Below are positions 1,138 through 6,252 of a stretch of 6,252 nucleotides of DNA, one piece after another. Numbering within the stretch: the stretch's first letter is position 1; every line of letters starts with the position of its first letter. The notes below the pieces were generated by a model. That model saw only the letters and a list, made by a program, of their open reading frames with translations. It searched no databases and was not told the DNA's origin. The stretch lies in IMG/VR virus record IMGVR_UViG_2778261453_000008; one strand, given 5' to 3'. The position numbers and the translations under genes were made by a program. The DNA comes from a virus. Taxonomy: Duplodnaviria; Heunggongvirae; Uroviricota; Caudoviricetes.

Positions 1138-1884
1138 TTACTTCACAACCCTCATATTGCTGACATTTGGACGCCAGCTATCCCAGTTAAACGTCACCCA
1201 TCGACCACCGTTCATGGTCATGCGGTCCATAATCCTCTCACCAAGAAGCGTACTCATTGCGGCATGATTCAGGTTTGTTAACATCCCGACACTGCACAGT
1301 GATGCTGTCCGGCGATCAATTATCTGGTGCAATACCACCTGCTCGTTTTTCGTCTCCCGCTGAACGCCTATTTCATCCAGGACCAGCAAATCAACCCCGC
1401 AAAGCTCCTGTAAAAATTTTTCCCCGGATTTGCCGTTGTCGTAGCTGTCATGCAACACGCTCATGACGTCAGACACGGTGACGATAATCACGCTGCGCCC
1501 CTTCACCATCAGCCGGTTGCCCATCGCCGCTGCAAGGTGATTTTTCCCGGTGCCGGTTTTACCGCTGAACACAAAATTCGTGCACCCGGTCATCAGTTCG
1601 TCAGCTATGGATTTGGCCTGGCTCAGCGCGTATTTTTGCCCGTCGTTCTGCACCTGATAATTTGCAAACGAGCATTTGCTGTGCAGAGGCTGGATGCCCG
1701 AACGATTCAGGATTTTTTCCACCCGCAACTGGCGATTCTGGCGGTTAATCTCCTCGCTGCGTTTTCGTCCTTCAGCAAGTTGCCATTCCCGCCACTCCTC
1801 CACCGTCCGGTACGGTGGAACCGACCCCTGTGGTGCAAGTCTGCGAATACGTTCAAGAACCCCAACTGCCGCAATGTTTTTCAT
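1138..1884 (-). CDS. DnaC-like replicative helicase loader (AAA+ ATPase; lambda P functional analogue, Rac YdaV position)
   Basis: 248-aa ORF with a DnaC-type Walker A (FSGKTGTGKNHLAAA) and Walker B (DLLVLDEIG). ATG at 1884..1882 lies 6 nt after the O-like stop (1891..1893), suggesting translational coupling. Confidence 0.9.
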   Translation of the reverse strand: MKNIAAVGVLERIRRLAPQGSVPPYRTVEEWREWQLAEGRKRSEEINRQNRQLRVEKILNRSGIQPLHSKCSFANYQVQNDGQKYALSQAKSIADELMTGCTNFVFSGKTGTGKNHLAAAMGNRLMVKGRSVIIVTVSDVMSVLHDSYDNGKSGEKFLQELCGVDLLVLDEIGVQRETKNEQVVLHQIIDRRTASLCSVGMLTNLNHAAMSTLLGERIMDRMTMNGGRWVTFNWDSWRPNVSNMRVVK

Positions 1885-2875: not shown

Positions 2876-3301
2876 TTAGTGCATCACCACAGCATTCCCT
2901 GCAGGGCCGCCGCGATTCATCTGGTCATACAAAACAACCGCTGACGCAACAAAATCATCGACATCCTTCACCAGCCGATCCCTCCGTTCGACGATCTCAC
3001 GGTAATATTCAGAACTGTGGCTGCGCATACGGGCCACCAGCAAAGGCGGCATCGCCTTTTCGATTGCCGGTAACAGAGCCTGCATTTTTTCAACAGCATC
3101 AGGGGTGTCTTTATCCAGCCAACGGAAAATTTTCTGGGTATTACGGGCCAGGGCTTCCGGATGGCTGTCGTCATACAGTTCCGGGAACGTCATTCCCAGT
3201 TCGAAATACGCTTTGGTAATTTTCGCAGCCGGTATTTTTTCGCCGTCCGGATGCGCCCAGGCATTCATCGCCATGCGGATGTGTTCATGCTTGATTTTCA
3301 T
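2876..3301 (-). CDS. ydaT: YdaT-like protein (Rac-type, toxic when derepressed)
   Basis: 141-aa ORF starting MKIKHEHI..., which matches my recollection of YdaT in length and N-terminus. ATG at 3301..3299 has an AGGAG SD (plus 3309..3313 reverse-complemented). It overlaps the end of the upstream ydaS-like gene by 17 nt. Confidence 0.8.
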   Translation of the reverse strand: MKIKHEHIRMAMNAWAHPDGEKIPAAKITKAYFELGMTFPELYDDSHPEALARNTQKIFRWLDKDTPDAVEKMQALLPAIEKAMPPLLVARMRSHSSEYYREIVERRDRLVKDVDDFVASAVVLYDQMNRGGPAGNAVVMH

Positions 3302-3566
3302 GAATCAAGCTCCTAGTAAGTGGTTGTGTTAACGTTTTGGTATCTTCCAGCTCGGGCCAAATATTCATCCAATCAAAAGGCCTTAGTTGCTGACGTGTAA
3401 CTTCACCATTACTGGCTCGCTCAATAAGGACACATAACGATGCCCCTAACATTTGACCTTTACTCAATGCCTTTCTTAGATAACCGATGCTAGTACCACA
3501 CTCACATGCAAACATACGCTGTTCATCTGACGAAAGAGAATTGAGAAATATTCTTAATTCTTCCAT
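3285..3566 (-). CDS. ydaS: YdaS-like Cro/CI-type HTH protein (Cro analogue of Rac-type prophages)
   Basis: 93-aa ORF with a C-terminal segment (...LCVLIERASNGEVTRQQLRPFDW...) typical of the YdaS family. ATG at 3566..3564 has an AAGGAG SD 5 nt upstream. It is divergent from the repressor gene and first in the replication operon. Confidence 0.8.
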   Translation of the reverse strand: MEELRIFLNSLSSDEQRMFACECGTSIGYLRKALSKGQMLGASLCVLIERASNGEVTRQQLRPFDWMNIWPELEDTKTLTQPLTRSLIHENQA

Positions 3567-3666
3567 AGCTACTCCTTAGTAAACACAGCAAAGGATACCT
3601 ACAGGTAAACAAAAGTCAATACCCTTGGGTTGTTTACCTTGCGGTAATCGCATCTATTATTTACCT
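3567..3666. promoter_or_regulatory. Divergent promoter/operator region between the ydaS-like and repressor genes
   Basis: Two palindromic sites of form (A/T)TACC-N4-GGTAA: O1 at 3595..3608 (ATACCtacaGGTAA) and O2 at 3634..3647 (TTACCttgcGGTAA), plus a half-site TTACC at 3661..3665 abutting the repressor ATG. Candidate minus-strand promoter for ydaS: -35 TTGACT (plus 3614..3619 reverse-complemented), 16-nt spacer, -10 TATCCT (plus 3592..3597 reverse-complemented), overlapping O1. Confidence 0.55.
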
Positions 3667-4086
3667 ATGGACAAATATGAATTTAGACGACAACAACTCA
3701 TCAAAATTCGTGATGAGAAATGCGATGGTAAAGCGGTTAACGTGGCCAGAAAGATCGGTCGCGAGCCTTCTTATGTATCAAGAATGTTGTACCCAGAGGG
3801 GAAAAAAGGAAAAAAACGGATCGCTGATGATATGGTGGAGATTATAGAAGAGTCCTTTGGGTTACCCCGGGGATGGATGGATGGTATCGTTTCATCATCA
3901 ACGAACACAGCCTCCAATTATGAAACAAGGGTTCTAACGCCACGACAACGTATTTTTTTAGATCTCTTAGACGAACTGCCAGAAAGTGAAGCGGATAACT
4001 TATTAAAAACTCTTGAAGAGAAAAAACAGTATTACAATATGATCTACGAAGAAATCCGTAAAAAGAAAGCACAAAACGCATCATAA
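3667..4086 (+). CDS. Prophage immunity repressor, RacR/DicA-like (N-terminal HTH, C-terminal ELPESE-type domain)
   Basis: 139-aa ORF from ATG 3667 (MDKYEFRRQQLIKIRDEK...KAVNVARKIGREPSYVSRM...). The C-terminal ...LDELPESEADNLLKTLEE... resembles DicA/RacR-type repressors. It is divergent from the cro-like ydaS and AT-rich. The track ORF begins at an upstream TTG (3625) with no SD, so ATG 3667 is preferred. Confidence 0.8.
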   Translation: MDKYEFRRQQLIKIRDEKCDGKAVNVARKIGREPSYVSRMLYPEGKKGKKRIADDMVEIIEESFGLPRGWMDGIVSSSTNTASNYETRVLTPRQRIFLDLLDELPESEADNLLKTLEEKKQYYNMIYEEIRKKKAQNAS

Positions 4087-4120
4087 CTCACCAAACAACC
4101 AGTCACCAGTCAAGATACAT

Positions 4121-4168
4121 CAAAAAAAAATTACCCGTGGGTATTTACTTTTTGAATACCCACGGGTA
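4121..4168 (-). terminator. Rho-independent terminator hairpin, canonical on the minus strand (possibly bidirectional)
   Basis: Perfect 14-bp inverted repeat, tacccgtgggtatt (4132..4145) and aatacccacgggta (4155..4168), with a 9-nt loop. Plus-strand A9 at 4122..4130 gives a U9 tract right after the stem on the minus strand. On the plus strand the stem is followed only by tccttcctttc, so it is weaker for the repressor transcript. Confidence 0.6.
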
Positions 4169-4354
4169 TCCTTCCTTTCATACCAACCCACCCCGTCCCA
4201 CAGAACGCAGGGCAATACCTAGAGTTACCCGGCAGTGGTCAGGGGTTAAGTAGCCAGCCCGAGGCGTATGAACATGACGGCGGGAACACTTTATATAACA
4301 GCGCAGCAGGTTTTTAGTTCCGCTACCCCGGCGTTAAGGGGAAATGAGGTCAAC

Positions 4355-4507
4355 ATGGATACGCTCAATCTTGGCAACAACGAATCTCTGGTGTGCGGCG
4401 TGTTCCCAAACCAGGACGGTACGTTCACCGCAATGACGTATACCAAAAGCAAAACGCTTAAAACCGAATCTGGCGCGCGTCGCTGGTTAGCCAGAAACAC
4501 TGACTGA
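4355..4507 (+). CDS. Small conserved prophage protein, 50 aa (Rac YdaF/YdaG-like position)
   Basis: ATG 4355 with a GAGG SD (4346..4349) and 5-nt spacer; product MDTLNLGNNESLVCGVFPNQDGTFTAMTYTKSKTLKTESGARRWLARNTD. The track extends the frame up to ATG 4268, but that extension has rare codons (ATA, AGG, GGA) and contains a -10-like TATATA/TATAAC at 4293..4300, so I read it as promoter/5' UTR. Confidence 0.55.
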   Translation: MDTLNLGNNESLVCGVFPNQDGTFTAMTYTKSKTLKTESGARRWLARNTD

Positions 4508-4518
4508 TGAGGTTGACG

Positions 4519-4893
4519 ATGGAATTTAAAGATTTACCAATACCATTTCAGGAAATGGCAGCGAATATAGTTCGTTCTCAATTGGCTACTCTTGACCTGA
4601 GTACCGTAGAAAAAGAAACCATCGATAATATATCCGGTAACGTGCGCCGAGCCTTTATCGGGCTATACGAAGAGAAGCAGCTCTCTGATAACCAGGATTT
4701 ACATGAAAAATACTTTCTGGAATTAATGGACATCATTAATAAGGGATTTGGCCTGTTAATGAAAAAGAAAGGGATTCGAATAGCCCCCCTTGAAAATCAT
4801 TTTACAGCAAGCAGTATTAATTCCTGTGATTTAAAGCATCACACATCCGATAGGAAAGTTGAATCCACCTATAAAATATCAATTAATCATTAA
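4519..4893 (+). CDS. Hypothetical protein, AT-rich moron in the immunity region (124 aa; 128 aa if started at ATG 4507)
   Basis: ORF immediately after the small ORF. ATG 4507 overlaps its TGA by 1 nt, and ATG 4519 has a GAGG SD (4510..4513) with 5-nt spacer. GC is about 37% in a 119-nt sample I counted, versus about 58% in a sample of the DnaC-like gene. No transmembrane segment or recognisable motif; ends ...TSDRKVESTYKISINH. Confidence 0.6.
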   Translation: MEFKDLPIPFQEMAANIVRSQLATLDLSTVEKETIDNISGNVRRAFIGLYEEKQLSDNQDLHEKYFLELMDIINKGFGLLMKKKGIRIAPLENHFTASSINSCDLKHHTSDRKVESTYKISINH

Positions 4894-5343
4894 TTTATTC
4901 ACGGGTGAGATAGAGTGCGTGCGCCGGACACGGGTGAGCATCCGGCACTGACAGTTTACTGAAAGGATATTTCCCTGAAAAGTCAGACCATAACGCGAAA
5001 GCGTACGGCGAGGTAGCTGGTTCATAGATAGCCTGTCGTTAAATTTTGACCGTGCGCTTCCGGTTGTGGCAATCCGCGAAATGGCGCGGCGGTAAGTATG
5101 GCGGGGTTATTCCTTCCCCGTTGAGGACACCGGGTTGTCAGGTTGACCATACGCTTAAGTGACAACCACGCTGCAACGCCCTCTGTTATCAATTTTCTGG
5201 TGACGTTTGGCGGTATCAGTTCTACTCCGTGACTGCTCTGCCGCCCTTTTTAAAGTGAATTTTGTGATGCGGTGAATGCGGCTAAGCGCACGCGGAACAG
5301 TTAAAACCAAAAACAGTGTTATGGGTGGGTTCTCTGTATCCGG

Positions 5344-5388
5344 CGTTAATTGTTAACTGGTTAACGTCACCTGGAGGCACCAGGCACC
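5344..5388. promoter_or_regulatory. Repeat cluster upstream of kilR (putative regulatory site)
   Basis: Three tandem 8-bp units GTTAAYTG at 5344, 5352 and 5360 (gttaattg / gttaactg / gttaacgt), with GTTAACTGGTTAAC near-palindromic. Then a tandem 7-bp repeat aggcacc-aggcacc at 5375..5388, flanked by the inverted pair cctgg / ccagg. Function not established. Confidence 0.3.
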
Positions 5389-5425
5389 GCATCAACAAAG
5401 TTCATTTGTAAAAATGGAGATAATT

Positions 5426-5647
5426 ATGATTGCTCATCACTTCGGAACTGATGAGATTCCTCGTCAGTGCGTGACTCCCGGTGATTATGTTATTCATAAA
5501 GGAAGAACATATATTGCTTCGGTAAACAACATTAAAAAACAACGGCTCTATATTCGTGATTTTTCCACACAACACTGTATTAAGGAAACCATGATTAAAG
5601 TCTTCCTTGGTCGTGATGGTTTACCTGTAAAAGCAGAGTCATGGTGA
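5426..5647 (+). CDS. kilR: KilR-like killing protein (Rac-type cell-division inhibitor)
   Basis: 73-aa [35 protein letters not shown]...[18 protein letters not shown], matching my recollection of Rac KilR in length and sequence character. GGAG SD at 5416..5419 with 6-nt spacer to ATG 5426. The track ORF starts 4 codons upstream at ATG 5414, which has no SD. Confidence 0.8.
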
Positions 5648-5771
5648 GCAGTAATAAAATAACTGCCACAATACGACATTCAGCTTAATGAATACATCAG
5701 ATTTGATTCTTATATGCCAGCAATGGCAGGGATTTGTTCATCCTTAAATATATCATGAGGTTAAAACAAAA

Positions 5772-6252
5772 TGAGTAAAGTCTTTATTTGCGCCGCCATT
5801 CCGGACGAACAGGCAATAAAGGAAGAAGGTGCAATTGCTGTAGCCACTGCCATTGAAGCCGGTGACGAACGCCGCGCCCGTGCCAAATTTACCTGGCAAT
5901 TCCTGGAGCAATATCCGGCTGCTCAGGACTGCGCTTATAAATTTCTTGTCTGCGAGGATAAACCCGGCATGCCCCGCCCTGCTATCGACTCCTGGGATAC
6001 CGAATATATGCAGGAAAACCGCTGGGATGAGGAATCCGCTTCCTTTATTCCGGTCGAACCAGAATCCGATCCGATGAACGTCAATTTTAACAAGCTGTCC
6101 CTTGAAGTACAGAACGCGGTCCTGGTTAAGTTCGGTACATGTGAAAACATCACCGTTGATATGGTGATTAGCGCGCAGGAATTGTTGCAGGAAGACATGG
6201 CAACATTCGACGGACATATCGTTGAAGCGTTGATGAAAATGCCAGAAGTTAA
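5772..6252 (+). CDS. Hypothetical acidic protein, 3' end beyond the window (first 160 codons); first gene after kilR in the early-left operon
   Basis: ATG 5772 with GAGG at 5757..5760. The frame is open to the window end and gives a well-behaved acidic protein (MSKVFICAAIPDEQAIKEEGAIAVATAIEAGDERRARAKF...). The overlapping minus-strand track ORFs translate to Cys/His/Phe-rich junk. Identity not recognised with confidence. Confidence 0.65.

Follow-up and report, generated by a model that had tools for sequence, protein, structure and literature searches.

A dicF cassette with a structured leader as the very likely content of the ORF-poor gap upstream of kilR in a Qin/Rac-like prophage

The prophage DNA analyzed here raises the question of what occupies the roughly 520 bp without a plausible gene that separate kilR from the ORF preceding it. 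Judged from its ORFs and from family searches, the window (the whole stretch of 6,252 nt that was analyzed) is the early region of a Qin/Rac-type lambdoid prophage. A preliminary description of this DNA had pointed out the gap, had expected a pL-like promoter in it, and had closed with three guesses: a differently regulated promoter, a structured leader or a small RNA. Its account of the coding capacity holds, with the upstream ORF stopping at 4893, kilR starting at 5426 and the longest ORF in between measuring at most 56 aa. The genes surrounding the gap are the following:

1138-1884, minus strand: DnaC-like gene (ORF and family search)
Minus strand: replication-initiator gene, carrying an iteron array with a 15-nt period at 2429-2518
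2876-3301, minus strand: YdaT-family gene
3285-3566, minus strand: Cro/YdaS-like gene
3667-4086, plus strand: repressor-like gene
4355-4507, plus strand: DUF1391 (ydfA/ydaF-type) gene (family search)
4507-4893, plus strand: ORF of 128 aa without a family, between the DUF1391 gene and the dicF cassette
5426-5647, plus strand: kilR, encoding a Rac-type FtsZ inhibitor of 73 aa, with the Shine-Dalgarno (SD) sequence GGAG at 5416-5419

The iteron array consists of five tandem repeats of the type TCAAC.GTTGA.GGG, and its position within the initiator gene is the usual site of a lambdoid origin. The 128-aa ORF, for which a Pfam search gave zero matches, stands where Qin carries ydfB and ydfC, and resembles an inserted cargo gene in its behavior. 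An ORF of 124 aa, likened to it by size and position alone, is found at the equivalent place 3' of ydfC in other prophages (L003, 2126-2500; L126, 4433-4807). The KilR protein of the window shares 81% identity with K-12 KilR (E 2e-47), and an in-frame ATG at 5414, upstream of 5426, provides an alternative start. Downstream of kilR, an ORF of at least 160 aa (5771-6252) extends past the end of the window and likewise has zero Pfam matches. The gene content downstream differs from that of L126, the closest complete genome, since the latter has an exonuclease gene directly after kil.

It is very likely, in our view, that a dicF cassette fills this gap, belonging to an early-left operon of the pL/dicBp type in a Qin/Rac-like lambdoid prophage, and that it is processed as proposed below. 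The Rfam covariance-model search suggested in the preliminary description identifies DicF (RF00039) at 5195-5246 over the whole model (1-52 of 52); the score is 72.4 bits (E 4.9e-15), where the gathering score is 48, and so the guess of a small RNA was right. The remaining Rfam matches in the window (CRISPR-DR41, snoU49, mir-250, c4-a1b1) are far under their thresholds and were taken as chance. In the alignment to K-12 dicF (b1574), 52 of 53 nt are identical, the one substitution being U29C. The RNA has the architecture of DicF, with a single-stranded 5' seed, a GGCGG...CCGCC terminator hairpin and T5 at 5247-5251; a simple terminator scan missed this terminator because its loop is long. The context is equally that of dicF, namely a repressor-controlled early-left operon, after the DUF1391 gene and before kilR (instead of dicB). 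For the duplex with the K-12 ftsZ region from -29 to +25, RNAduplex predicts -38.7 kcal/mol versus -38.5 kcal/mol for K-12 DicF, and the window DicF is predicted to retain full complementarity to the ftsZ initiation region.

DicF is known from the DicF/dicBF operon of prophage Qin in K-12 (RF00039; Faubladier 1990; Balasubramanian 2016; Ragunathan 2023). It represses ftsZ, xylR, pykA and manX in an Hfq-dependent manner and activates pchA in EHEC, and a second form of 72 nt is cut by RNase III out of full-length transcripts (PMC5069750, PMC9438474). The window resembles Qin in having the same sRNA, upstream hairpins, terminator and downstream leader within an early-left operon after the DUF1391 gene. 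It differs from Qin in that kilR takes the place of dicB, ydfB and ydfC are missing, the 128-aa ORF lies ahead of the cassette, the putative RNase III hairpin has a 4-nt deletion, and DicF carries U29C. The element itself is an ordinary one, as it is a known DicF locus with known processing signals, and the gap is thus explained by a well-studied sRNA locus.

The comparison across related prophages that had also been suggested reveals a widespread spacer. From 4899 to about 5395, the gap is ~97% identical to the ydfC-dicF-dicB spacer of K-12 Qin; from about 5395 on, the window follows Rac (kilR) and not Qin (dicB). Of 5426 complete E. coli genomes, 4722 carry the spacer, in up to 10 copies each (median 2). 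Functional phages have it as well, and one of them, Tritos, has DicF annotated at this place. Among species representatives, the exact junction between terminator and leader was found in Escherichia and Shigella only, plus two probably contaminated metagenome bins.

We propose that transcription most likely starts at an operator-controlled promoter near 4132-4168, and that the transcript would pass the DUF1391 gene and the 128-aa ORF before entering the gap. RNase III would probably cleave a long hairpin at 4988-5069 near position 5057, giving a precursor of ~190 nt, RNase E would cleave an A/U-rich stretch ahead of 5194, and the GGCGG/CCGCC-U5 terminator would end the 53-nt DicF at 5246. The product would act as an Hfq-dependent base-pairing RNA repressing ftsZ and other host mRNAs. 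Read-through of the terminator would lead to transcription of a multi-hairpin leader of 168 nt, whose 28-bp closing helix is predicted to bring the terminator U-run into pairing with the bases immediately ahead of the SD of kilR. An RNase III cut in this helix (at ~5265 and ~5394) would then yield the 72-nt DicF and a kilR mRNA with a short leader. The RNase dependence and the RNA sizes are taken from published work on the Qin homologue, from which we infer the same processing steps, and the exact cut sites, for this prophage.

The structures expected for such processing are present in the part of the gap up to the DicF terminator, which is organized as follows:

4900-4986, plus strand: two hairpins directly after the stop of the upstream ORF, kept in Qin
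4988-5069, plus strand: long imperfect hairpin, containing the first GGTTGT (5062)
5070-5193, plus strand: rest of the putative 190-nt precursor, with hairpins at 5074-5089, 5090-5132 and 5133-5167
5194-5246, plus strand: DicF sRNA of 53 nt (Rfam RF00039 and alignment to b1574)

The GCCGGA/TCCGGC hairpin of the preliminary description is found here with arms at 4923-4928 and 4941-4946 and with the second copy of a duplicated 10-mer, CACGGGTGAG, as its loop, while a second hairpin (CUGAC...GUCAG) spans 4948-4986. The two may form the 3' structure of the cistron fragment upstream. In the long hairpin that follows, the lower stem joins 4988-5011 to 5046-5069 through 22 pairs, with two single-base bulges per arm, and the first GGTTGT is part of this stem as the arm GGUUGUGG, which pairs with CCAUAACG. 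The window and Qin differ at two positions of the 5' arm (U5004/C5006), with pairing kept via G-U. The Qin locus yields a 190-nt DicF species with an RNase III-dependent 5' end (10.1101/2023.04.14.536235) and a 53-nt species that requires RNase E (10.1101/2023.04.14.536235; for RNase E also PMC5069750). Counting 190 nt back from 5246 leads to 5057, a position obtained by arithmetic on the published length and not by aligned end-mapping, and ~5057 falls midway along the 3' arm of the long hairpin. By analogy, this hairpin is a candidate RNase III substrate whose cleavage would set where the 190-nt DicF precursor begins. The window lacks four nucleotides (CGTC, at 5045/5046) that are present in the 17 other DicF-type loci in the comparison (n=18). 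This deletion is on the loop side of the predicted stem, at its inner end, adjoining the pair U5046-A5011, and could change the processing of the long hairpin.

In the remainder of the putative precursor, the hairpin at 5133-5167 is formed by the arms GGUUGUCA and UGACAACC, which are the later GGTTGT motifs, and is followed ahead of 5194 by the A/U-rich single strand CUCUGUUAUCAAU. Following the literature, the latter would be the site where RNase E makes the mature 5' end of DicF. The processing of DicF is known for Qin (10.1101/2023.04.14.536235, PMC5069750), and the matching structures seen in the window are consistent with the same route. Two other readings of this part were tried and are less likely. 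A long-range pairing of 5039-5059 with 5284-5304 could also hold the 5057 site, but the fold of 5030-5312 is no better than shuffles (z = -0.26), and in the full fold this pairing is outcompeted by the local hairpin. The segment 5057-5193 was considered as a second STnc100-like domain, as GTTGTGGCAATCCGCG resembles GTTGTGGTGAATGCGG by eye, but it has no STnc100 match at E <= 10.

The gap had been described as carrying several short repeat families, and the motifs concerned are indeed there, with coordinate errors of 1 to 4 nt where the earlier positions are off. The tandem AGGCACC-AGGCACC is located exactly at 5375-5388, and GGTTGT is found at 5062 and 5133 with its complement at 5162. The copies of CACGGGTGAG lie at 4900-4909 and 4929-4938, rather than starting at 4899 and 4933. 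The GTTAAYTG triple is present too, but its start was off by one and its third copy does not fit that consensus (GTTAATTG at 5345-5352, GTTAACTG at 5352-5359 and GTTAACGT at 5360-5367). As repeats, these motifs are weakly above chance. GTTAAYNG has 5 matches in the whole window versus 1.6 expected (a level reached in 5/200 shuffles), GGTTGT has 10 versus 3.75 expected (2/200 shuffles), and for a 10-mer duplicated within 600 nt we estimate ~0.17 occurrences by chance. Both copies of CACGGGTGAG, at the 5' edge of the gap, are variable among relatives. The motifs are better called hairpin arms: the short repeats are stems of RNA structures, not control sites. On the plus strand, the whole gap folds better than its shuffles (z = -4.25).

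The guess of a structured leader is borne out by the sequence between DicF and kilR, for which folding and covariation agree on the following elements:

5247-5414, plus strand: structured leader of 168 nt, from the U-run of the DicF terminator to the ribosome-binding site of kilR
5247-5274 / 5385-5414, plus strand: closing helix
5278-5282 / 5288-5293, plus strand: hairpin 1
5294-5296 / 5339-5341, plus strand: junction helix
5342-5351 / 5359-5368, plus strand: hairpin 3, which is the GTTAAY triple
5370-5374 / 5380-5384, plus strand: hairpin 4, with the loop AGGCA

The leader fold has a z of -5.55 relative to shuffles. In an alignment of 13 distinct versions, the consensus comprises 50 pairs, five of which show compensatory changes, located in the closing helix (A-U to G-C), the junction helix and hairpin 3, where Qin and Rac types differ by G-C to U-A and U-A to G-C swaps. 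The AGGCACC pair corresponds to the loop of hairpin 4 plus the start of the closing helix on its 3' side. Relatives differ in the center of the leader by indels of 1, 4 and 14 nt, and this part is therefore not coding. The 3' end of the 72-nt DicF, counted from its published length (5194 + 71), would be 5265, midway along the 5' arm of the closing helix; the partner of this position, ~5394, lies some 20 nt before the SD of kilR. As this RNase III product would end inside the closing helix, we read the helix as a putative RNase III site at which read-through transcripts would be split into DicF and the mRNA that follows.

In lambda, the N leader of the pL operon contains an RNase III site located after nutL. 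The two leaders can be likened in having a long RNase III-sensitive helix (putative in the window) just 5' of the ribosome-binding site of an early-left gene, and no sequence relation was seen. Unlike in lambda, no N/nut system was seen in the window.

The leader is common to versions linked to dicB and to kilR, and to versions preceded by DicF and by KilS, the sRNA of Rac. It also matches the STnc100 model (RF02076) end to end, over positions 1-206 of 206, with 37.6 bits (E 1.3e-5), a score under the Rfam gathering threshold of 47, and the Rac copy of the leader reaches 28 bits (E 3e-4). STnc100 and PasD are prophage RNAs of unknown function that have been judged to share a common ancestor, PasD having been found by Hfq RIL-seq (10.64898/2026.05.13.724894, PMC12370729); neither of these two reports links them to the dicF locus. 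The leader shares with them the multi-hairpin architecture, the GGUGAAU junction, the 3' hairpin CACCNGGAGGCACCNGGCACC with the closing strand, and a covarying closing helix, GGUGAAU ... CACCNGGAGGCACCNGGCACC being the invariant core of both types. Viral contigs were scanned for the 3' motif common to both, which gave 135 matches: 108 of the STnc100 type (CACCGGGAGGCACCCGGCACC) and 27 of the leader type (CACCTGGAGGCACCAG.CACC), two types that are themselves set apart by a compensatory G-C to U-A swap. The closing helix and hairpin 4 show compensatory changes in this wider family too: among 31 diverse sequences they are 92% paired, by many kinds of pair, and this pairing score was reached by 0/500 shuffles, nor did slid registers come close. 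This wider count is limited to these two elements because MAFFT set the subfamilies in different registers, and the leader-only alignment was used for all other pairs. The leader is related to STnc100 at a sub-threshold level.

The STnc100-type copies are mostly found between the Q antiterminator and holin genes at the head of late operons, and one copy follows a cI-type repressor gene. On sequence reading, they are often closely preceded by promoter-like hexamers and closely followed by a terminator. Typical members thus stand alone between Q and the lysis genes, whereas the window leader is internal to the early-left transcript and runs directly into a coding gene. It extends from the terminator U-run of DicF up to the SD of kilR, with no promoter-like sequence or terminator of its own in the window.

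These relations bear on the best surviving alternative, in which the leader core (~5266-5394) has a role of its own as an RNA of the STnc100/PasD class, either released as an sRNA or acting in cis on the read-through into, or translation of, kilR or dicB. The end-to-end match, the invariant core with its swap and covarying closing helix, the conservation with dicB or kilR after and DicF or KilS before, and the fact that the STnc100-type copies head late operons and that STnc100 and PasD are detected RNAs all argue for it. The sub-threshold score and the missing promoter and terminator speak against it, as does the K-12 annotation, which has no RNA from the dicF-dicB spacer. HK022, which has the known put antiterminator RNA, also lacks the motif: neither the core (with up to 3 mismatches) nor an Rfam match was found in HK022, and a put-like antiterminator was rejected on sequence. 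We therefore regard such a role as possible but rather unlikely. The same tentative standing applies to the extended reading that the leader is a true, diverged member of STnc100/PasD, kept as a fixed joint between DicF/KilS and dicB/kilR alleles, with its core released as a second stable RNA or controlling the read-through or translation of the toxic gene. The folded spacer shared by dicB and kilR, akin as it is to the uncharacterized STnc100 and PasD, could guide work on that class.

A pL-like promoter is not to be expected in the gap itself. The TACC-N4-GGTA motif has 9 matches in the window versus 1.4 expected, and exact sites are restricted to 3596, 3635, 4132 and 4157. The first two lie between the cro-like and repressor genes in the divergent region, where a group at 3596-3646 adds one site with a single mismatch. 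The other two form a pair in the interval that separates the DUF1391 (ydfA-like) gene from the repressor gene:

4132-4143 and 4157-4168, plus strand: operator-like palindrome pair TACCCGTGGGTA / TACCCACGGGTA, both exact TACC-N4-GGTA

Both palindrome groups are likely the operators of this immunity type. A candidate pL-like promoter, TTTACT-N17-TATCCT, was read by eye at 4132-4168, flanked by the two palindromes of the pair. In Qin, dicBp is located upstream of ydfA (10.1101/2023.04.14.536235), and the window operators at 4132-4168 match this position. By this analogy, from which we infer the promoter function, 4132-4168 is probably the pL/dicBp-like control region driving the transcript through the gap. 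The preliminary description was correct that no TACC-N4-GGTAA operator is visible in the gap, where the best match is a single one with one mismatch at 5004. Its expectation of a pL-like promoter there fails, as the operators are at 4132-4168 instead and the gap has no plus-strand sigma-70-like site. The early-left control region is thus placed ~730 bp upstream of the gap, given the exact operators at 4132/4157 and none in the gap. Motif and consensus scans detected no lambda-type pL/OL region, that is, no operator motif overlapping a sigma-70 promoter, in the gap. The promoter consensus scan of 4000-5800 returned zero plus-strand sites, and in the gap it returned two minus-strand promoter-like sites only, fewer than in shuffles.

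These scans also weigh on the second alternative, an internal promoter in the gap driving kilR or DicF independently of the repressor-controlled one, which we consider improbable. A weak GTGACT-N16-TAAAGT (8/12), overlapping the DicF terminator at 5229-5256, can be read by eye, KilS of Rac is possibly transcribed independently and can have its own start site (Bar et al., PMC8175672), and an older report, to which 10.1101/2023.04.14.536235 refers, had proposed a promoter ahead of dicB. However, apart from the absence of plus-strand sites and of an operator motif, the near-identical Qin sequence shows processing and not initiation: no internal promoter was found in this homologue, with ‘no evidence for other promoters’ by primer extension and northern analysis (10.1101/2023.04.14.536235). 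This improbable reading is the differently regulated promoter guessed at in the preliminary description.

A missed small protein, either the 31-codon frame at 5316-5411 (‘DicB, partial’) or a minus-strand hypothetical ORF, is highly improbable: PGAP, the automatic annotation pipeline of NCBI, annotates a partial DicB pseudogene and minus-strand hypothetical proteins on the homologous stretch, but the frame is open into dicB in Qin-type copies only and in the window stops at 5411 without sharing the frame of kilR, the indels given above fall in the middle of the leader, leader substitutions track base-pairing rather than codons, and the annotated minus-strand ORFs vary in length among close relatives (54 and 73 aa; 48 aa here). 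The Pfam search gave zero matches for the small ORFs of the gap, which were rejected as genes on this ground and for lack of a conserved frame. A decayed sieB, ydfB, ydfC or dicB was also looked for in the gap by tblastn, with nothing significant. In related genomes, 84 nt of the leader are labeled ‘DicB, partial’ by PGAP (L126, 5471-5554; L001, 2922-3005). Given the stop at 5411 and the frame relative to kilR, this is an annotation artifact, traceable to DicB models that extend too far rather than to the remains of a gene.

While the DicF element is already known, its combination with kilR is less common than DicF with dicB or KilS with kilR. In viral contigs, the leader-type motif is followed by DicB (start 32 nt past the motif) or KilR (25 nt), rarely by others, and the sRNA before it is either DicF or a second type, which shares the terminator base and differs in its seed. 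This second type is KilS of Rac (b4833; PMC8175672), and the usual pairings are KilS with kilR and DicF with dicB. The Rac locus is like the window in its homologous position, the GGCGG..CCGCCC-U5 terminator base, the same leader and kilR downstream, but KilS has the RprA-like seed AUUGCUGUGUGUAGUC. In the window, the DicF seed and not AUUGCUGUGUGUAGUC precedes the shared terminator, and KilS scores 39 bits with the DicF model via this terminator. DicF combined with kilR is found in 135 of 5426 complete E. coli genomes (~2.5%), in a prophage adjoining ompW, and the viral contig L107 encodes a KilR identical to that of the window. Judged by sequence comparison, the DicF-kilR arrangement is a recombinant with its crossover at the 3' end of the shared leader. 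The prophage thereby places two FtsZ-directed inhibitors in series, the DicF RNA and the KilR protein.

Some further arrangements of these modules were observed. In KilS of K-12 Rac (L005, 2406-2503, minus strand), the seed AAAUAACGACAUUGCUGUGUGUAGUC aligns, in the Rfam model of the core sRNA RprA, with its conserved pairing region at a sub-threshold 28 bits, and KilS may be a prophage mimic of RprA. The viral contig L029 (~2821, minus strand) has a DicF seed joined to a KilS-like terminator loop, with the upstream RNase III hairpin wholly deleted, and this hybrid allele shows that recombination occurs within the sRNA itself. Four other viral contigs (L006, L008, L019, L021) encode an STnc100-like domain with a leader-type 5' half, GGTGAATGCGGCTCAGCGCACGCGG, followed by a KilS/RprA-like seed and terminator. 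As the seed and terminator come after the domain and not before it, the same modules occur there in the opposite order.
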